Source: Escherichia coli
GTDB taxonomy: Bacteria; Pseudomonadota; Gammaproteobacteria; Enterobacterales; Enterobacteriaceae
DNA: 64,000 nt
Direction: 5' to 3' (one strand)
Assembly (NCBI RefSeq): GCF_030384885.1
Contig: NZ_CP128613.1
Within the stretch, counting starts at the first letter, position 1. Every line of letters starts with the position of its first letter. This document shows positions 1-62,167 of the stretch, piece after piece. Below the pieces are notes generated by a model that saw only the letters and a list, made by a program, of their open reading frames with translations, ran no database searches and was not told the DNA's origin. A program made the translations under genes and the position numbers.

Positions 1-230
1 GCCTGGCGCATGAGTTGGCGTAGCATTAAACCGCTCTCATCAACCATGGTCAGACCCAGTTCGTCTACGTCGCGGAAATGCCGATAAAAAGAGGTGGGAG
101 CAATGCCCGCTTCACGCGCCACTTCACGCAAACTCAGGCTGGCGAAGCTGCGTTCAGCACTTAATTGGCTAAATGCGGCTTCCACCAACGAACGGCGGGT
201 TTTTTCTTTTTGTTGCGCTCTTACGCCCAT
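1..230 (-). CDS. fabR: FabR (TetR-family repressor of unsaturated fatty acid synthesis), N-terminal part only; gene runs off the window start
   Basis: Minus-strand translation from ATG at 228-230 reads [23 protein letters not shown]..., the FabR N-terminus; divergent from sthA. Confidence 0.8.
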
Positions 231-564
231 CACGATGTCTGAATCCTTGCCAAAAGTACTGCTGGCACTATACCAGAGAATGAACATACTGGATTGCTCC
301 AGTGTTGTGAATGAACCGTAACGCAATAAAACATATTTACTGCAATTCTTTGGCTGGTTCTTTTACGAACATCGGAAACCTGCCGCTTAAACGGTGAGTA
401 TTGGCGATAAAAATCCAATAAAACGTTCAAGGCAAAAGTAAGAAACAGACAAAGCAAAGGCCGCTCACGATATAGCCAGATAAATGACGGGGATCAATTG
501 GCTTACCCGCGATAAAATGTTACCATTCTGTTGCTTTTATGTATAAGAACAGGTAAGCCCTACC

Positions 565-1965
565 ATGCCACATTCCTACGATTACGATGCCATAGTAATA
601 GGTTCCGGCCCCGGCGGCGAAGGCGCTGCAATGGGCCTGGTTAAGCAAGGTGCGCGCGTCGCAGTTATCGAGCGTTATCAAAATGTTGGCGGCGGTTGCA
701 CCCACTGGGGCACCATCCCGTCGAAAGCTCTCCGTCACGCCGTCAGCCGCATTATAGAATTTAATCAAAACCCACTTTACAGCGACCATTCCCGACTGCT
801 CCGCTCTTCTTTTGCCGATATCCTTAACCATGCCGATAACGTGATTAATCAACAAACACGTATGCGTCAGGGATTTTACGAACGTAATCACTGTGAAATA
901 TTGCAGGGGAACGCTCGCTTTGTTGACGAGCATACGTTGGCGCTGGATTGCCCGGACGGCAGCGTCGAAACACTAACCGCTGAAAAATTTGTTATTGCCT
1001 GTGGTTCTCGCCCTTATCATCCAACAGATGTTGATTTCACCCATCCACGCATTTACGACAGCGACTCAATTCTTAGCATGCACCACGAACCGCGCCATGT
1101 ACTTATCTATGGTGCTGGAGTGATCGGCTGTGAATATGCGTCGATCTTCCGCGGTATGGATGTAAAAGTAGATCTGATCAATACCCGCGATCGCCTGCTG
1201 GCATTTCTCGATCAAGAGATGTCAGATTCTCTCTCCTATCACTTCTGGAACAGTGGTGTAGTGATTCGTCACAACGAAGAGTACGAGAAAATCGAAGGCT
1301 GTGACGACGGTGTGATCATGCATCTGAAGTCGGGTAAAAAACTGAAAGCTGACTGTCTGCTCTATGCCAACGGTCGCACCGGTAATACCGATTCGCTAGC
1401 GTTACAGAACATTGGGCTGGAAACTGACAGCCGCGGACAACTTAAAGTCAACAGCATGTACCAGACCGCACAGCCGCACGTTTACGCGGTGGGCGACGTG
1501 ATTGGTTATCCGAGCCTGGCGTCGGCGGCCTATGACCAGGGGCGCATTGCCGCGCAGGCGCTGGTGAAAGGCGAAGCCACCGCACATCTGATTGAAGATA
1601 TCCCTACCGGTATTTACACCATCCCGGAAATCAGCTCTGTGGGCAAAACCGAACAGCAGCTGACCGCGATGAAAGTGCCATATGAAGTGGGCCGCGCCCA
1701 GTTCAAACATCTGGCACGCGCACAAATCGTCGGCATGAACGTGGGCACGCTGAAAATTTTGTTCCATCGGGAAACAAAAGAGATTCTGGGCATTCACTGC
1801 TTTGGCGAGCGCGCTGCCGAAATTATTCATATCGGTCAGGCGATTATGGAACAGAAAGGTGGCGGCAACACTATTGAGTACTTCGTCAACACCACCTTTA
1901 ACTACCCGACGATGGCGGAAGCCTATCGGGTAGCCGCGTTAAACGGTTTAAACCGCCTGTTTTAA
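565..1965 (+). CDS. sthA: Soluble pyridine nucleotide transhydrogenase
   Basis: 466 aa ORF; FAD/NAD Rossmann motif IVIGSGPGG near N-terminus; matches SthA/UdhA as recalled. Confidence 0.95.
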
Positions 1966-2865
1966 CACTTTATCGAAATGGCCATCCATTCTTGCGCGGA
2001 TGGCCTCTGCCAGCTGCTCATAGCGGCTGCGCAGCGGTGAGCCCGGACGATAAACCAGGCCAATAGTGCGGCGTGGTTCCGGCTTAATACACGGCAAATA
2101 AACAACCCCATCGCGTTTGCGCTCCGGCGGCACAGCCAGTGCAGGCAGTAAAGTGATCCCGCTACCTGCCGCCACCATGTTGCGCAGAGTTTCCAGGCTG
2201 GTCGCGCGGAAGTGTGTATCTTCATCCGCCCCGGCTTCAAAGCAGAAACCCATTGCCTGATCGCGCAAACAGTGACCATCTTCCAGCATCAGCAGTTTTT
2301 CCCCTGCCAGATCGGCCATTGGTACGCATTCGCGGTTCGCCCACGGGTGATCTTCATAGATAGCCAGCAACATTGGCTCATCAAACAACGGCACTTCAAT
2401 GAATGCTTCGCTCTCTTTCACCAACGCGAGGATCACGCAATCGAGTTTGCCACTGTCCAGTTGCGCCAGTAACTGGTGGGTCTGTGCTTCATGCAGATAC
2501 ATTTCCAGCTTTGGAAAGGTCTGGTGCAGCATCGGGATAATATGTGGTAGCAGGTACGGTCCGACCGTGGGAATCAAACCAATATGCAGCGGCCCGGACA
2601 TTGTCTCGCCCTGCTGGCTTGCCATCTCTTTAAGGACTTTCACCTCACGCAGCACGGTACGCGCCTGATCCACCAGCAGCATTCCCGCCTGGGTGAATAA
2701 CACTTTACGGCTGGTCCGCTCCAGCAACATCACGCCCAGCTCATCTTCCAGCTTACGAATTTGCCCGCTAAGCGTCGGCTGGCTAACGTGGCAGGAATCT
2801 GCCGCACGCCGAAAATGACGGTGTTCAGCCAATGCCACCAGGTACTCAAGATCACGAATATTCAT
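1948..2865 (-). CDS. oxyR: LysR-type oxidative stress regulator OxyR
   Basis: ORF translation from internal Met reads [44 protein letters not shown] (305 aa form); 3' end overlaps sthA convergently. Confidence 0.95.
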
Positions 2866-2960
2866 TATCCATCCTCCATCGCCACGATAGTTCATGGCGA
2901 TAGGTAGAATAGCAATGAACGATTATCCCTATCAAGCATTCTGACTGATAATTGCTCACA
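2866..2960. promoter_or_regulatory. oxyR-oxyS divergent promoter region with expected OxyR operator
   Basis: Position between oxyR start codon and oxyS 5' end; operator not delineated base by base. Confidence 0.5.
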
Positions 2961-3078
2961 GAAACGGAGCGGCACCTCTTTTAACCCTTGAAGTCACTGC
3001 CCGTTTCGAGAGTTTCTCAACTCGAATAACTAAAGCCAACGTGAACTTTTGCGGATCTCCAGGATCCGCTTTTTTTTA
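2961..3078 (+). ncRNA. oxyS: OxyS small regulatory RNA
   Basis: Sequence GAAACGGAGCGGCACCTCTTTTAACCCTTGAAGTCACTGCCCGTTTCGAGAGTTTCTCAACTCG... ending in hairpin GCGGATCTCCAGGATCCGC plus T8 matches OxyS as recalled. Confidence 0.85.
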
Positions 3079-3116
3079 TTCTACAGGCCCACAGCAAGAG
3101 AGCCTGATAGTAACAG

Positions 3117-4400
3117 TTACTCAATCCGATCTTTGACAATAAAGAAGTAACACAGCGCCCCGGTGAACGTCACACAGGCCGCGATAACCAGCGCCAGATT
3201 AAACGAGTGCGTGGTATCCACTACCCAACCGGTTACGATCGGAGCAAAGGAAGCAAAAACAAAACTGCCAAAGTTTTGAATCCCGGCGATGGAAGCCACT
3301 TTTGTTTCTGACACCATCACCTGCACCAGTCCCCATGCAGATGTTCCCGCGAAATGCACGCAGAACAGCGCCATTGAGATAAACGCTACAGCCTGGGCTG
3401 GCGAGGAGGATTGCACTACCAGCAACGTGCCTAATGCCGACATCATCAAACCGCAGACAATAGCCGTTTTACGCGTCTTCGCCAGGTCGTAGCCTTTTTT
3501 CGCCAGCCGATCGACAACAATACCGTTAACCCACATCCCGACCGCCGCCGCGAGGAAAGGAATCGCCGCCACCCAACCGGTTTTCGCCAGACTGAAGCCT
3601 TGCTCGGCTTGTAAATAACCGGGTAACCACGCGATGTAGAGCCAACCGGTATAATTGACGCCAGAGAAACCTAAAATCATCCCCCAGGTTGTCCGATGCT
3701 TAAACAGCGCCAGCCACTCGCTAAATTGTAATTGTGGACGCGGTTTAACCGGCGCGGAGAGATAGGTCCGTTCTTCGTCGGTCAGGACAAACTGCGCCCG
3801 GTTGCGATACCACGCGTACCAACAGATCCCAACCAGAATCCCCGCCACGCCGATGATGACGAACATTGCCCGCCAGCCCCATGCCAGCTGCATCAATACA
3901 AGAGCAGGAGGCGCAATAGCCTGACCGATAACGGTAGATGAGTTAAAAATCCCCAGCGCCGTGCCGCGTTCTTTTTGCGCATACCAGTCGGTGATCGACT
4001 TTACTCCCGCAGGCATAAATGGCGCTTCGCCAATACCCAGACCGATACGCATTAAAATAAAGTGGCTAAAAGAATTAACCATTCCTGTTAATGCCTGCAT
4101 TAATGACCAGAATATTAAGCCTGCGCCTAAAACTATTCGTGGGCCAAAGCGGTCTAGCAAAATACCGGAAGGGAGTTGTGAAAAACCATAAGACAGAGAA
4201 AATGCAGAAAGCAAAACGCCAAATTCTGTCGCCGATAATCCTAACTCGCCACGAATCGCTTCGCCTGCCACGCTCAATGACGAACGGTCGAGGAAATTAA
4301 CGATCCCCGCCATAAATAATAAAACCAGCGTTACTGTCTGAATACGACGAATCCGTTGCGGTTTATTACCCGCAACACTGGTTGACACATCAACGTCCAT
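3117..4400 (-). CDS. MFS transporter, anion:cation symporter-like (sugar-acid/hexuronate transporter type)
   Basis: 427 aa, multiple hydrophobic helices, MFS-type motifs; sits 66 bp downstream of the dehydratase gene on the same strand. Confidence 0.8.
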   Translation of the reverse strand: MDVDVSTSVAGNKPQRIRRIQTVTLVLLFMAGIVNFLDRSSLSVAGEAIRGELGLSATEFGVLLSAFSLSYGFSQLPSGILLDRFGPRIVLGAGLIFWSLMQALTGMVNSFSHFILMRIGLGIGEAPFMPAGVKSITDWYAQKERGTALGIFNSSTVIGQAIAPPALVLMQLAWGWRAMFVIIGVAGILVGICWYAWYRNRAQFVLTDEERTYLSAPVKPRPQLQFSEWLALFKHRTTWGMILGFSGVNYTGWLYIAWLPGYLQAEQGFSLAKTGWVAAIPFLAAAVGMWVNGIVVDRLAKKGYDLAKTRKTAIVCGLMMSALGTLLVVQSSSPAQAVAFISMALFCVHFAGTSAWGLVQVMVSETKVASIAGIQNFGSFVFASFAPIVTGWVVDTTHSFNLALVIAACVTFTGALCYFFIVKDRIE

Positions 4401-4466
4401 TTTTAGCTCCTTGAGCGGAATTAATCGATTTGCTGACTATTCAGAAAATAATTAAGCGAACCGTTA

Positions 4467-5681
4467 TTACCAGTTCCACAATGTGCCATCTTCCAGTCGT
4501 GCGACGGGGAGATACGCCGGGTCATACGGATATTTCGCCGCCAGTTTCTCATCGAAAGAAATACCCAGCCCCGGTTCATCGCCTGGGTGCATATAACCTT
4601 CATCGAAGCGCCAGCTGTGCGGGAAGACTTCAAGCATTTGTTCGGAATAGCCCATGTACTCCTGAACACCAAAGTTTGGCACCCAGAGGTCAAAATGCAG
4701 CGCCGCCGCATGACAAACAGGCGATAAATCTGAAGGGCCATGCGAACCGGTACGTACCTGATAAAGCGATGCAAAATCGGCAATCCGTCGCATCCCGGTA
4801 ATGCCGCCTGCATGGGTAATCGTCGTGCGAATATAGTCAATCAGCTGCTCTTCGATTAACTGCTTGCAGTCCCAGATACTGTTAAACACTTCACCGACCG
4901 CAATCGGCGTCACAGTATGCTGGCGAATCAGACGAAAACATTCCTGGTTCTCGGCAGGCGTCGGATCTTCCATCCAGAACAGGCGGTAATCCTCTATGCT
5001 CTTCCCAAAGCGTGCCGCTTCGATAGGAGTCAGGCGATGGTGCATGTCATGCAACAGATGTTCGTTAAAACCGAACTTATTACGCACCGCTTCAAATAAC
5101 TTCGGTGTAAAATCGAGATACTTTTCTGAAGACCACAAATGCTCTTCCGGCCACAGGCCTTTGGTTGCCGGTTCATACGCCAGTCCTTTGCCCTTCGCCA
5201 GGCCATAAGTGGTTTGCATACCCGGTACACCGCACTGCACACGAATCGCCTTAAAGCCCATCTGCTGGTGCTTTGCATAGTCTTCAAGGACTTCATCAAT
5301 CGTGCGCCCGGTGGTGTGGCAATAAACCATCACGCCTTCACGAGAAGCCCCACCAAGCAGTTGATACAATGGCATATTTGCCGCTTTGGCTTTGATATCC
5401 CACAACGCCATATCAATGGCAGAAATGGCCGACATCGTGACGGGGCCACGTCGCCAGTAAGCACCTTTATAAAAGAATTGCCAGATATCTTCAATACGGC
5501 TGGCATCGCGGCCAATTAATTGTGGACAAAGATGATCTTTCAGATAAGAAGCGACCGACAATTCGCGACCATTTAATGTGGCATCTCCCAATCCACAAAG
5601 TCCGCTTGCAGTGGTTATTTTAAGCGTAACGAAATTACGTCCTGGGCAAGTAACAAAAACATCTGCAGCAATAATTTTCAT
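4467..5681 (-). CDS. Enolase-superfamily sugar-acid dehydratase (mannonate dehydratase / RspA-like)
   Basis: Translation [59 protein letters not shown]...; start set at ATG 5679-5681 preceded by AGGAGA; the track ORF extends upstream to 5741. Confidence 0.85.
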
Positions 5682-5805
5682 TATTGCAATCTCCTGTGTT
5701 GTAAATAGACGCTTCAAACTTAATTTTACGCCTACTACCATACAAGAGAGAAAGAGCGATTATTCAACCGTGATCACATTAAAAATAAAAATTTCCGCCG
5801 AGGAG

Positions 5806-5815
5806 CCCCCCCCCC
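5806..5815. repeat. Homopolymeric C10 (G10 on coding strand) tract ~125 nt upstream of the dehydratase start
   Basis: Ten consecutive C read directly at 5806-5815. Confidence 0.9.
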
Positions 5816-6165
5816 TCAAAAACCACCTGAATAATTAACCATCATCGTTAAAACAACACGTTAAATAATCACATAACAAACTCCATTAATCATTAAAAAT
5901 GAGCGCAGCAATAGAAATGAATTATATTCAATTAATTAAAATATGTATTGATTGATGTATTGAAAATATGATTTTCATGGGGAGAGTGAAGGTAAAGAAG
6001 ACGCAAGAATAAAAAGGAATATGACAAATAATAGTTCTGGTTGGGCGTTAAATTTAAGGTCACCAGAATGCTGACAAATTTCTGCCTGAGGCAGTCCGCC
6101 TACGTAGTGTCGCTACTTTATAGGCGTGGTAAGCTCCCCATTTTCAGGGGAGCAATATAAACCAA

Positions 6166-7539
6166 TTACCCCAACCGCGCCTGCGCAAAAGCAATCGCCT
6201 GCGCCACCTGCTGCGGTGAGACGCCGCCTTTTGCCGCACGCTTGTCGAGGCACGATTGCAGCGACAGAATCGGATAGACATCTTCGCCAATCACCTGACT
6301 GAATTTCTGCAACTCACTGAGCGGCAGTTCTTCCAGCGGTTTGCCCTGACGAATGGCTTCCACCACCGCTTCACCCACAATATGATGCGCCTCGCGGAAA
6401 GGTACGCCTTTCGCCACCAGGTAATCCGCCAGTTCAGTGGCGTTGGCGTAACCCTGCTGAGCCGCTTCCTGGCAACGCGGACGTTTCACCTGAATCCCGT
6501 CCAGCACCAGCGCCGCCATATGCAGGCAGTCCAGCCAGGTATCGAGCGCGTCGAACAGACCTTCTTTATCTTCCTGCATATCTTTGTTATAGGCCAGCGG
6601 CAGACCTTTCAGCGTCATCATCATGCCGGTCAACGCGCCCTGAACACGACCGCATTTACCCCGAATCAGCTCCAGCGCATCCGGGTTTTTCTTCTGCGGC
6701 ATTAATGATGAACCGGAAGTAACACGATCAGAAAGCTCCACAAAACCCGCTTCGCCGGTGTTAAAGAAAATCAGATCTTCGGCAAAACGCGACAAATGCA
6801 CCATACCGATAGCGGCGGCAGAAAGCAGTTCCAGCACGTGGTCGCGGTCAGAAACGCTGTCGAGACTGTTACGGGTCGCCGAGGCAAAGCCCAGCCAGCC
6901 TGCTAACTGTTCACGGTCGATTTCATAGGCCGTTCCCGCCAGTGCGCCACAGCCTAACGGGCTGACATCCAGACGCTTAAGCGCATCCTGCAAACGGCTT
7001 TCATCACGCGCCAGCATCTCAACATAGGCCAGGCACCAGTGCGCAAACGTCACCGGCTGGGCGCGTTGCAGGTGAGTGTAACCAGGCATTACCGCGTCCT
7101 GATTATTCTGCGCGGTCTCGACCAGAGCGGATTGTAACTGTCGGTTAGCCGTCAGCAACTCGCTAACGGTATCCTTGCACCACAGTTTCAGGTCAGTCGC
7201 TACCTGATCATTACGGCTACGCCCGGTATGCAATTTTTTGCCTAACTGGCCCACTTTGTCGATCAGTTTGCCTTCCACCCAGCTATGGATATCTTCGGCG
7301 TCGCTTTCAAGAATTTGTTGTGGCCTGGCGCGAACATCTTCCAGCAGCACATTGAGCGCCTCTTCCAGTTGCACCTGTTCTTCTGCGGTTAACACGCCTA
7401 CCGTTACCAGCGCTTTGGACCAGGCCACAGAGCCAACAATATCCTGCTCCGCCAGACGGTAATCAAAGCGCAGTGAGTCGTTGAATTGTTTAAACCGTTG
7501 ATCTGCTGCCTGGGTAAAACGCCCGCCCCAAAGTGCCAT
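6166..7539 (-). CDS. argH: Argininosuccinate lyase
   Basis: 457 aa, [37 protein letters not shown]...; lyase signature [12 protein letters not shown]. Confidence 0.95.
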
Positions 7540-39907: not shown

Positions 39908-41461
39908 ATGATGAGAACTGTATTTACGACTTTATCAGTCATATTCAGCGTGATGTTTTCTCACAGTATACTAGCTCAGGACGTTACTATTTATTATACG
40001 AATGATATTCACGCACATGTCAATCCGGCAAAAATTCCCGCTGTTGATAAGAACAGACTTGTAGGTGGTATGGCTAATATTGCAGGCATCGTTAATGAAG
40101 CGAAGAAAAAAAACAAAGATGTCTTTTTCTTTGATGCAGGCGACTATTTTACCGGTCCGTATATCAGTACCCTGACCAAAGGTGAAGCTATTATTGATAT
40201 CATGAACACCATGCCCTTTGATGCGGTGTCCGTTGGTAATCACGAGTTCGATCACGGCGTGCCCAATATGGTATCTCAGTTATCAAAAGCAAAATTCCCC
40301 ATTCTGCTGGGAAATATTTACTACACCGATACAAATAAACCAGTTTGGGATCATCCGTGGACCATTATCGAAAAAGATGGTTTAAAGATTGGTGTGATTG
40401 GATTGCATGGTGCATTCGCTTTCTATGATACAGTCGCGGCAAAAGCACGTGAAGGCGTAGAAGCCAGAGACGAAATTAAATATTTAAATAAAGCACTTGC
40501 AGAATTAAAAGGTAAAGTCGACATTACCGTTTTGCTAATTCACGAAGGTGTTCCGGCGCGTCAATCAAGCTTTGGTAGTAAAGATGTGGAGCGGCTACTA
40601 CAGGCAGATATTGAGACAGCTAAAAAAGTGAATGGTGTTGATGTCTTAATTACCGGTCACGCACATGTCGGAACACCGCAACCAATAAAAGTTAATAACA
40701 CATTAATTGTATCTACCGATGCATACGGCACCGACATCGGAAAACTTGTGCTTGATTACAATCCGAAAACAAAGAAAATTGATAGTTATAATGGTGAGTT
40801 AATCACCATCTTTGCAGATCAATTTAAACCTGACACCATCGTTCAAAATACTATCGATAAATGGAGCATAAAGCTTAACAAAATAACACAGGAAGTTGTC
40901 GGCCATTCTCCCGTAGTTTTAACACGTGAGTATGGCAGTTCTTCTTCTACCGGTAACCTTATTCTAGATGCAATGATGGAAAAAACACCTGATGCCATTG
41001 CCGGATTTCAAAATAGCGGTGGGATGCGAGCTGATTTTCCTAAAGGTGATATCACACTGGGAGATGTTATTAGCACATTCCCCTTTAATAATGACCTCAT
41101 CGAGATGGATTTGACGGGCCGCGATCTCAAATCATTGATGACGCATGCAACCAATCTAACTAACGGTGTGTTACAGGTTTCAAAAAGCGTTGCGGTTGTC
41201 TATGACAGCAAAAAACCACTCAACCAACGGTTAATCTCTTTCACCATTAACGGCAAACCCGTGGAAGATAATCAAACATATCGTATTGCCACGCACTCCT
41301 TTTGTGCCAGTGGTGGTGACGGTTTTGAAGCATTTTTGAATGGAAAAAATGTGAAGACGATACCGGGAACAACCTCGGCGGAATCTATCATCGATTATTT
41401 CAAAAATCATAAACCTGTCACCCCAGACTTAACTAAACGAGTCATGGACGTCGCCAAATAA
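39908..41461 (+). CDS. UshA/CpdB-family periplasmic nucleotidase (paralog B, most divergent)
   Basis: Signal peptide, same metallophosphatase motif set ([26 protein letters not shown]); AGGAGG RBS at 39901. Confidence 0.85.
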   Translation: MMRTVFTTLSVIFSVMFSHSILAQDVTIYYTNDIHAHVNPAKIPAVDKNRLVGGMANIAGIVNEAKKKNKDVFFFDAGDYFTGPYISTLTKGEAIIDIMNTMPFDAVSVGNHEFDHGVPNMVSQLSKAKFPILLGNIYYTDTNKPVWDHPWTIIEKDGLKIGVIGLHGAFAFYDTVAAKAREGVEARDEIKYLNKALAELKGKVDITVLLIHEGVPARQSSFGSKDVERLLQADIETAKKVNGVDVLITGHAHVGTPQPIKVNNTLIVSTDAYGTDIGKLVLDYNPKTKKIDSYNGELITIFADQFKPDTIVQNTIDKWSIKLNKITQEVVGHSPVVLTREYGSSSSTGNLILDAMMEKTPDAIAGFQNSGGMRADFPKGDITLGDVISTFPFNNDLIEMDLTGRDLKSLMTHATNLTNGVLQVSKSVAVVYDSKKPLNQRLISFTINGKPVEDNQTYRIATHSFCASGGDGFEAFLNGKNVKTIPGTTSAESIIDYFKNHKPVTPDLTKRVMDVAK

Positions 41462-50469: not shown

Positions 50470-50905
50470 TTTAGTACAAAAAAGCAGCGTTAAGTGAGTA
50501 GGCCACCGGAACCTCCCCGACAGCCTCTCGCAGAACCGTACGTGAAACTCTCGCTTCATACGGCTCCCGTCAGGCAAACGCGCTTCCTGGTCCTGCTTTC
50601 CAGTGGGCAAACAACTCCGGCTTCTCTTTTGACAGCCTTTCCATTAGCTGACACGCCTTCGTCTTTCTATACCGCAGGGTTTTATATTTCTTTCTCGCCC
50701 ACGCAATCAGCGTCAGATTAATATATCTGCATACTTTCTTCATCGCTGATTTGTGGTATCTCGCGTAATAATTCAGCCACCCCAATATTATCGGATTCAG
50801 CCACTTCGCAATATCTTCGAGACTCATCTCCACCCTGCGTCTGATCCACAGTTTCCTGAGTTTTCCAATCATGCCTTCGGGTTTACTCATCTCACTGTAT
50901 CTCAC
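50470..50905 (-). mobile_element. Group II intron 3' remnant: maturase C-terminal fragment plus domain V
   Basis: ORF fragment has maturase motif WLNPIILGWLNYYARY; just downstream, minus-strand 50566-50533 reads GAGCCGTATGAAGCGAGAGTTTCACGTACGGTTC, a 34-nt domain-V-type hairpin. Confidence 0.6.
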
Positions 50906-51111
50906 ATAGGATCAGATCTCGTCTGATCGTTCCCCCTGCGCTCACTACCATGGCTCTTTACCACAGCAGCCGGGGTTGTTTGGGACCGACTTCCGACAGC
51001 AGATCCCGGTGGGCCTGCCACCATCTCTTCACAAGCTTATGCTTATTACATGCAAAACGTCCCGTTTTGCATCTTTGTGCCTACGGCACACCGTGATCTT
51101 TCCCTGTCGGC

Positions 51112-51330
51112 ATGTTGACCACTGACGAATGGGGTAGTTACGCTAGAGAGTTACCAAAGGAGAAGCATCTGACTGGTAAGATTTTTACTCAGCATATTGA
51201 GCGTAACAATCTGACCCTGAGAACCCGAATCAAACGTCTGGCCCGCAGAACCATCTGTTTCTCGCGTTCTGTAGAACTTCATGAAAAAGTCATCGGTGCT
51301 TTTATCGAAAATATATGTTCTACTAATTGG
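51112..51330 (+). pseudogene. IS1-family InsB transposase C-terminal fragment
   Basis: …DEWGSYARELPKEKHLTGKIFTQHIERNNLTLRTRIKRLARRTICFSRSVELHEKVIG… parallels the InsB C-terminus (…[37 protein letters not shown]…); no N-terminal part present. Confidence 0.6.
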
Positions 51331-51395
51331 AGTCATCACCCTTCTGATGAGCTTTCCTTGGATGATTACCAGACTGAATACATAGCCAAAGATTT

Positions 51396-51755
51396 TTACC
51401 TCATTCTGCTTTTTTTTCTCAAATGACATATATTATATTTTACATCATATTCATAGGCATATGACATTCCCCCGCCCCCCATTATGTCATTGTGGGTTGA
51501 TGTTGGGCTTTCATAAAAAAATACATCTTTTTTTGAACTAGCATTAATTATATTTACTTTATATATTAAAATATTTTCTCCATCTGGAAATATTTTAGCC
51601 ACACAATATAAAGCAGCCAAATCCGAATTACTTAAAAATATATTGTCATCACTCATAACTCCAGCCATTAAATGACTGGAGACTAAAGCAAGGAAATAAC
51701 AACATTGTATTGCCTTCATTTTAATTACTCCCTTGCCTGATAATTGTAACTCCAT
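51396..51755 (-). CDS. Putative Rhs-toxin immunity protein (secreted/membrane-anchored); 3' end may be truncated by the IS1 fragment
   Basis: ORF directly downstream of and overlapping the Rhs C-terminal tip; internal start [21 protein letters not shown] looks like a signal peptide; AT-rich. Confidence 0.45.
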
Positions 51756-52275
51756 TCCCTTTAGCTTTGGGATTATATTTTAGATAGGTGTTATTTGGTG
51801 TTCCCAAGTAACTACTGTATTCTTTTTTTCCCATTCCATTCATATAAGAATTCGTTAAATCTTTGCTTGAAAAATTTAGACTATCATAAACATCATTTTC
51901 TTTTGTTACTTTATTTCCTTTATCGTCAGAGTAAAAACCGTGAGTGTGATAATCGCCTACTCTCTCTGAACCTTCAGGGCATTTTATATTTCGCAAGTCT
52001 ACACTATCATTATCATTTGAACTTATCGGATTCATGGGGAAATATTCACCTTGCTTCTTACATATTAGTCCACCATATTCTTTATTCTCGTTAATTGATT
52101 CTCCATTACACATTGCCAATGCAAATATTCCAATATCATCTATATTTTTTGATTTAAATTCATATAATCCTAATGGATCCATGCCATTCACCGGGCTCAG
52201 CGGATATGTATACAGGTTCCATCCCCCCTTCAGCCCAATCGGATCCTGAGTGATATACCGCCCCTGTAACCGTCC
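51721..52275 (-). pseudogene. Rhs core-end plus C-terminal toxin tip (RhsA-CT-like), detached from any intact rhs core
   Basis: Open frame reads [36 protein letters not shown]…; tip contains [16 protein letters not shown], resembling the K-12 RhsA C-terminal region as recalled. Confidence 0.6.
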
Positions 52276-61450: not shown

Positions 61451-62167
61451 ATGAGATACGTTATCTTATTAATACTATGGATAATAACTACTTTTCTTAG
61501 TCATCTTCAGCACAGCAACCTACTGTCTGGAGATCCTGGCATGGTTGGCGAGTATATCGGTTCAGTATTTCTGGGGCCGTTGTTACTTCCCGTGCTTGTG
61601 TCAGGTATTCTGTGCGCATTTATTAAAAAAAAACGTAACTTCGCCAGTTTTACTCGCGGGTGCTGTTGGGTATTGGGAATCCTGCTTTTATCCAAAGTCG
61701 GCAATACGTTTCGTATGTTTACCCCGTGGCAATATACCTTTGAGAATGCTGCGATAACCGTGACTATCCCGAACCGACACTGGAATACGGTTTCCATTAG
61801 TACTAATAAAACCATTGATATAAGAAGTGAGGATAATAGCGTCTTCATTTCTGCTTTCCGCCTGCCCGCAGGACGTAGCGCCGATGACCCGCTGGAAGCG
61901 TTAAAGAAGAAGCAGCGAGACAATCTCAAGGATCAATACAATGAGGAAGCCTTCCAGTTTCATGATTGTAATGCCAAACATTTCACCTGTAAGTATCAGG
62001 ATGTGTTGATAAATTTTGATGGTCAGCAGAAAAGAACCATCAGTGTTTATCTTGAAGACACCCCCAGGGCTGTGGGGATCATTGCATTAATGGCGCCAGA
62101 TACGGCAGATAAATATCGCCAACAGGCGATGGAGATTATGCTTTCCGCTAAAAATGCAGTGAAGTAA
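61451..62167 (+). CDS. Hypothetical membrane protein (orphan, AT-rich gene)
   Basis: 238 aa; two to three N-terminal hydrophobic helices (MRYVILLILWIITTFLSHL; SVFLGPLLLPVLVSGILCAFI; CCWVLGILLLS) then soluble domain; no family recognised. Confidence 0.6.
   Translation: MRYVILLILWIITTFLSHLQHSNLLSGDPGMVGEYIGSVFLGPLLLPVLVSGILCAFIKKKRNFASFTRGCCWVLGILLLSKVGNTFRMFTPWQYTFENAAITVTIPNRHWNTVSISTNKTIDIRSEDNSVFISAFRLPAGRSADDPLEALKKKQRDNLKDQYNEEAFQFHDCNAKHFTCKYQDVLINFDGQQKRTISVYLEDTPRAVGIIALMAPDTADKYRQQAMEIMLSAKNAVK

Follow-up and report, generated by a model that had tools for sequence, protein, structure and literature searches.

A C10 homopolymer upstream of the manD-MFS operon of Escherichia coli: a probable young by-product of a replication-error hotspot

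Homopolymers located in promoters serve as phase-variation switches, as exemplified by the poly-G tract of porA and the poly-C tract of opc in Neisseria meningitidis and by the fim poly-C tract in Bordetella pertussis. A different concept, developed for eukaryotes, is the "birth of a microsatellite", in which substitutions extend a proto-repeat. Tracts of poly-G/C in Campylobacter (PMC4965091) and a survey of Neisseria (PMC5084427) belong to the same field as the promoter switches. In E. coli mutation-accumulation experiments, base substitutions cluster beside mononucleotide runs, and more frequently so the longer the run; about half of these run-adjacent substitutions are explicable by transient misalignment (bioRxiv 10.1101/346874), also called dislocation (Kunkel & Soni 1988, as cited in these studies). 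One of the two strongest run-associated hotspots is AC3+, an A followed by at least three Cs, which undergoes A:T>C:G transversions (PMC13250602, PNAS 2026). Its mechanism is a loop-out of the nascent strand on the template C run, followed by realignment; the hotspot persists when proofreading and MMR are active, and an A on the leading-strand template makes it stronger (PMC13250602).

The locus described here has points in common with all three systems. The window, meaning the whole stretch of 64 kb that was analyzed, is E. coli chromosome with the gene order sthA, oxyR, OxyS, MFS transporter, manD, argH-argB-argC (minus strand), and argE (plus strand). The features in and around the tract are:

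1948-2895, minus strand: oxyR
2961-3070, plus strand: OxyS sRNA, full-length, divergent from oxyR (Rfam RF00035, 139.5 bits)
3117-4400, minus strand: gene for an MFS transporter of the D-galactonate transporter subfamily type, 427 aa, intact
4467-5681, minus strand: manD, 404 aa, intact (NCBIfam equivalog NF043051 and RefSeq annotation)
5800-5805, plus strand: left flank GAGGAG of the tract, kept in E. coli and E. whittamii in the alignment
5806-5815, plus strand: C10 homopolymer, exactly CCCCCCCCCC, which is G10 on the manD sense strand
5816-5837, plus strand: right flank TCAAAAACCACCTGAATAATTA, used as an anchor and invariant in all examined E. coli loci with the two-gene island
6032-6165, minus strand: argH 3′ flank, the right edge of the island, common to island-free strains, with a stem-loop at 6133-6153 and a partly deleted REP element

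The manD product matches profile NF043051 over residues 1-404 with 731 bits (cutoff 550), and it is accordingly a predicted D-mannonate dehydratase of the enolase superfamily. The MFS gene is co-oriented with manD and located 66 nt downstream of it. The profile match and the annotation thus agree with the dehydratase-transporter operon that had been proposed in an earlier, sequence-only reading of this DNA. Since manD is read from the minus strand, starting at the ATG at 5681, the tract is G10 in the sense of the gene. It is located upstream of manD, 125-134 nt from the ATG, between GAGGAG on the left and TCAAAAACC on the right. This placement matches the ten Cs about 125 nt ahead of the dehydratase start described in the sequence-only reading, as do the AT-rich surroundings: the GC content of the intergenic region 5682-6031 is 0.32, compared to 0.51 for the whole window.

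The manD and MFS genes and their AT-rich upstream region of ~350 nt make up an accessory island, bounded by the 3′ end of oxyS and the argH 3′ flank. The island-free relative H40 aligns only from query position 473, which corresponds to window position 6032. The island was found in 1,867 of 5,426 complete E. coli genomes and is missing from about two thirds of them. The argH-oxyS interval (window ~3071-6031) is a variable insertion point that may be empty or may hold the two-gene island or a larger island. In some strains (e.g., strain 100117; locus L041 12611-21677), an extra ~9-kb module containing a sugar ABC transporter, an FGGY kinase, L-ribulose-5-P epimerases, and a DeoR regulator lies between the manD upstream region and argH. 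A dedicated regulator was considered and rejected, as the two-gene island is without any and the DeoR of the larger variant belongs to the separate inserted sugar-ABC/FGGY module. A literature search on the manD island returned nothing relevant. In STEC2018-607 (L009), manD is annotated as frameshifted; in ampC_0069 (L040 17694-18701), the MFS CDS is annotated as shorter (1,008 nt compared to 1,284 nt); and in ET479 (H6), an IS1 transposase interrupts the manD-argH intergenic region. Because of these three cases and because about two thirds of the genomes are without it, the operon is regarded as dispensable. Two further observations concern the island borders and its spread. In the REP-like element downstream of argH (~6085-6100), 13 nt are missing compared to most strains (GCCTGAGGCAG-TCCGCCTAC against GCCTGATGCGGCGTAAACGCCTTATCCGCCTAC), and this deletion is common to the window clade and to ampC_0069-type strains. 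Across phylogroups, in strains that are 3.5% distant, the island (window 3001-6000) differs by 1-12 SNPs/kb, compared to 20-68/kb in the core genes on its flanks, which suggests a recent spread of the island by recombination.

To return to the tract, C10 is the sole C/G run longer than 7 nt in the 64-kb window, where C6 occurs five times and C7 once, and C8 and C9 do not occur. On an iid expectation, 0.11 C/G runs of at least 10 nt would be found per window; the empirical decay of run lengths suggests that C10 is more exceptional than this value implies. No C/G run of at least 8 nt was present in 566 kb from 80 other Enterobacterales loci, and the whole E. coli K-12 genome contains one 10-nt mononucleotide run (bioRxiv 10.1101/346874). 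The tract is therefore as uncommon as had been supposed. The second-longest homopolymer of the window is an A9 run at 61625-61633, outside the stretch that was compared with the genome of strain 2013C-4282 (see below).

The alleles at the site were counted as exact 41-mer matches across the 5,426 complete E. coli genomes. About 1,714 of these genomes carry the site, and in ~99.5% of the carriers the 11-nt sequence AAAAAAYACCC is found between GAGGAG and TCAAAAACC. The alleles are:

AAAAAATACCC: 916 genomes
AAAAAACACCC: 698 genomes
A6C5: 2 genomes (377323_2f and EC12)
A7C4: 1 genome (2017-02-2CC)
A5C6: RMDEC465
A1C9: 2020CK-00188
C8: 2013C-4282
C10: this window only, with 0 matches among the 5,426 genomes

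Exact AAAAAAYACCC thus accounts for at least 1,614 of the ~1,714 genomes, and ~92 genomes are apparently of the T-type with one further difference in the 41-mer. When C10 was used as the query against the 5,426 genomes, just two close alleles were obtained, those of 2020CK-00188 (A1C9) and 2013C-4282 (C8). Runs of at least 8 nt are accordingly present in 2 of the 5,426 genomes plus the window, A/C-boundary alleles in six genomes plus the window in total, and no C-rich alleles beyond those listed were detected in the 5,426 genomes. A6TC4, which would be the first intermediate from the T-type, had no exact match in this set. What separates A6C5, A5C6, A1C9, and C10 from the ancestor is solely A>C substitution where the As meet the Cs, except that A1C9 and C10 are also altered in length by one base. 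A pattern scan of metagenome contigs yielded 17 with the site (13 C-type, 3 T-type, and one A7 variant, A7CAC3, in contig L034). Slippage also affects the ancestral A6 run, as seen in the complete genomes of N4220121 (A7CAC3; L125) and 05-3629 (A7TAC3; L126).

In E. whittamii and in the large-island variant of E. coli, the site reads ACAAAAATATCC, which is related and non-repetitive. Among 80 ManD-encoding loci of other species, the upstream region is common only to E. whittamii, so that no broad cross-genus footprint was possible; most ManD-locus hits in other species are probably RspA-type paralogues. As judged from these alignments, the tract is a derived, lineage-specific allele of the 11-nt ancestral AAAAAAYACCC.

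The closest relative of the window is informative on the behavior of the tract. Over a 25.5-kb ungapped alignment, the window and 2013C-4282 differ by 3 SNPs, and over ~58 kb by 7 SNPs, with two Cs of the tract as the sole small indel in this one pair. The two genomes are near-clonal, and their tracts are C10 and C8. The sole structural difference between them (window ~50,877-52,266 compared to L122 25,054-30,970) is ~4.5 kb of extra DNA in 2013C-4282; the annotated features of this region are an RHS element, an ISAs1 transposase, an IS1 fragment, and the reverse transcriptase of a group II intron (ltrA). The sequence-only reading had held the tract to be prone to slipped-strand mispairing and had proposed a comparison of tract length among strains. 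In this comparison the tract appeared unstable, since the four C-rich carriers all differ (C10, C8, A1C9, and A5C6).

The window, 2020CK-00188, RMDEC465, and 2017-02-2CC are each about 1.1-1.5% apart, compared to 3.4-3.7% between these same four genomes and two controls with the ancestral allele. These derived alleles are therefore all found within a single chromosomal clade. In contrast, the intergenic haplotype of the two genomes with A6C5 is of B2 type, with 45 differences in 765 bp from the window haplotype and 6 differences from typical B2 strains carrying the ancestral allele. The first A>C step consequently occurred at least twice independently. Since only six genomes plus the window carry boundary alleles, the steps are ordered by parsimony and not from a resolved phylogeny. 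Ancestry is blurred by recombination, with the island far less diverged than its flanks.

We consider it probable that C10 is a real, evolutionarily young, lineage-specific homopolymer that arose as a by-product of replication errors and not as a programmed element. The ancestral site contains ACCC, with an A directly 5′ of three Cs. The GC skew of the plus strand is -0.037 and the neighboring rrn operon is on the minus strand; by established replication and skew rules, the plus strand with 5′-ACCC-3′ is therefore the leading-strand template. Here, the C run would be copied just before the A, and a nascent strand that loops out in the C run and then realigns would give A>C. A single A>C at position 8 would fuse the Cs and yield A6C5. 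This allele was predicted as the missing first intermediate and then searched for, and it was found in exactly two genomes. Each further A>C would shift the A/C boundary to the left, by way of A5C6 towards A1C10 and C11, with the hotspot strengthening as the run lengthens. A7C4 could be one reverse boundary step from A6C5, which would match the weaker template-loop-out class (PMC13250602). Once the run had reached ~8-10 nt, ordinary slipped-strand indels would set in, and one or two deletions would give A1C9, C10, and C8. According to this model, ~99.5% of genomes would still be ancestral because the first step, at a C3 run, is slow, and every lineage past the first step would have a different allele because the later steps accelerate. 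From the series we infer the order of the steps, a process driven by mutation and not by selection, and an effect on manD-MFS expression that is small or nil. The total allele lengths along the series are 11, 11, 11, 10, 10, and then 8; selection on spacing could equally yield such a near-constant length.

The correspondence with the AC3+ hotspot is close. At both, an A lies 5′ of at least three Cs, A:T>C:G changes make the neighbor the run base, and the purine is on the leading-strand template; here too, each lengthening of the run would favor the next change, and the first step has arisen more than once, on separate haplotypes. The AC3+ studies recorded single events in laboratory mutation-accumulation lines, whereas here several consecutive events, preserved in natural isolates, would have made a pure run of 10 nt out of 11 nt of mixed sequence. 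The series also resembles the birth of a microsatellite, in that a non-repetitive ancestor became a pure repeat by point substitutions and slippage polymorphism appeared afterwards. In contrast to the eukaryotic concept, this is a bacterial mononucleotide run, and the substitutions would be driven by the growing run, which would make the process directional.

The exact tract lengths (10, 8, and 9) were taken from assemblies, and the sequence-only reading had cautioned that such tracts are a common site of sequencing error. It is rather unlikely, in our estimate, that the tract is real but its length polymorphism technical, arising from homopolymer miscalling in long-read or hybrid assemblies of a tract that is stable in vivo. 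Consensus sequences are classically prone to indel errors in long G/C homopolymers, and the sole small indel between the window and 2013C-4282 is located in the tract, as a tract-specific error would look. In addition, contig L034 contains compensating one-base changes in two nearby A runs, which resemble long-read noise. However, A5C6, A6C5, A7C4, and A1C9 differ by substitutions and not by indels, and their genomes originate from separate laboratories and countries; the pair of A6C5 genomes is concordant. Moreover, the ~58 kb compared between the window and 2013C-4282 cover an A8 run (40106-40113), a T8 run (3070-3077), and many 7-mers, and they contain no further homopolymer indel; therefore, neither assembly is generally error-prone at runs. 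(The T8 run is located at the 3′ end of OxyS.) The warning about sequencing error thus applies to the exact length (10 compared to 8) and not to the existence of the C-rich allele, which is corroborated by independent assemblies.

A regulatory function of the tract was weighed against the conservation of the upstream region in E. coli lineages and E. whittamii. The segments of this region are:

5682-5799, minus strand: proximal conserved block upstream of manD, 93% invariant columns
5778-5774, within the proximal block: CRP-like half-site TGTGA (palindrome GTGATCAC), read by eye, as are an A/T-rich stretch and the RBS AGGAG in the same block
5742-5737, minus strand: candidate -10 hexamer TATGGT, by eye only
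5728-5723, minus strand: candidate -10 hexamer TAAAAT, by eye only
5806-5815: tract columns, 73% invariant (E. coli lineages and E. whittamii)
5823-5843: from the tract flank to the distal block, 43% invariant
5844-5884, minus strand: distal conserved block GGAGTTTGTTATGTGATTATTTAACGTGTTGTTTTAACGAT, 93% invariant

The distal block is probably a regulator-binding region. The CRP-like site and the -10 hexamers were read from the sequence by eye and are not treated as evidence. These candidate core promoter elements are located 65-100 nt downstream of the tract, which would place the tract ~75-100 nt upstream of a putative transcription start. A consensus scan found no sigma-70-like -35/-10 pairs in 5500-6300. 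As the region reads, the tract is within a conserved regulatory segment and outside any recognizable core-promoter spacer. It replaces a moderately conserved A/T run, so that an effect on expression is possible.

Several other candidate elements were examined in this region. Two terminator-like matches in 5500-6300 are inside the manD coding sequence and were set aside as irrelevant. An Rfam scan of 2700-6300 at E<=1 returned OxyS only (2961-3070) and nothing at or near the tract. A short inverted repeat surrounds the tract, in which GAGG of the left flank pairs with CCTC at 5814-5817. The corresponding hairpin, with the tract as its loop, was rejected as a structured RNA or terminator, as RNA folding was no better than that of shuffled sequences (z of -0.23 for the ancestral E. 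coli sequence, -0.01 for E. whittamii, and -1.25 for the G10 version). Far from the tract, a repeat search upstream detected a direct repeat of 9 nt, ATGTATTGA, whose two copies are separated by 12 nt (5943-5963). AT-rich palindromes are likewise distant from the tract, and so is an imperfect inverted repeat of 17 nt at 5923-5968, in the AT-rich stretch far upstream of manD.

On this evidence, we find it quite unlikely that the tract is a contingency locus, at which slippage would change the spacing between the distal block (5844-5884) and the core promoter with its CRP-like site (5682-5799), so that sugar-acid uptake and catabolism are switched or tuned stochastically. The tract does lie between two 93%-invariant blocks, in a ~210-nt upstream segment that is kept even when the upstream neighbor differs, and in the assemblies of two near-clonal genomes it is 2 nt longer in one than in the other. 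In the derived alleles the two blocks are 1-3 bp closer together, an uninterrupted C10 is long enough to slip (about 7-8 nt or more), and G/C tracts of at least 7 nt are the standard switch in Campylobacter and Neisseria (PMC4965091, PMC5084427). Like the known switches, the tract consists of some 8-10 G/C residues ahead of an operon, and its assembled lengths differ between very close relatives. Unlike them, it is not between a recognizable -35 and -10, is not conserved in the species, and precedes metabolic genes instead of surface-structure genes. The missing sigma-70-like pair around the tract argues against a switch, and so does the scarcity of runs of at least 8 nt, which are confined to two of the 5,426 genomes and the window; in ~99.5% of carriers the site is non-repetitive and stable across phylogroups. 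The gene products are cytoplasmic or metabolic and not surface antigens, and the operon is dispensable and decaying in some strains. The tract is not maintained across strains, and there is therefore no sign of selection for mutability. The modulation of promoter spacing suggested by the sequence-only reading is thus not borne out: the scan of 5500-6300 gave no -35/-10 pair, the candidate elements are well downstream, and the tract is absent from ~99.5% of operon carriers. On present evidence, this is not a new regulatory system, and nothing shows a gene switch. We see only a slim chance that the window lineage is now evolving a contingency locus de novo, in which a mutation-driven homopolymer between conserved blocks would make manD-MFS expression heritably and reversibly variable. 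If true, E. coli would here offer one of its rare cases of promoter phase variation by strand slippage, and the evolutionary intermediates would still be alive.

A one-step origin, whether through foreign DNA acquired by recombination or through a templated event (quasi-palindrome or template switch), is very improbable: the short inverted repeat GAGG...CCTC flanks the tract and the recombinational history of the island is distinct from that of its flanks, but there is no nearby G/C run to act as template (a single run of at least 8 nt in 64 kb), the C-rich alleles match haplotypes with the ancestral allele in their flanks, without a difference as far as the tract, and A6C5, A5C6, and A1C9 are exactly the intermediates expected of stepwise boundary movement.

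The locus has practical consequences. Tract length in assemblies is not to be trusted, and the site should be masked or handled carefully in SNP/indel typing of the window clade. For manD-MFS biology, the tract is of little import unless an effect on expression is demonstrated. The locus is probably a natural example of a known mutational process. AC3+ was only recently defined in laboratory lines, and in the favored reading this locus shows it in natural E. coli, where it has acted repeatedly and directionally and has made, from an unremarkable stretch of 11 nt, a G/C run that is among the longest of the species. The strain-resolved series A6CAC3, A6C5, A5C6, A1C9, C10, and C8 is a model for the birth of hypermutable tracts.
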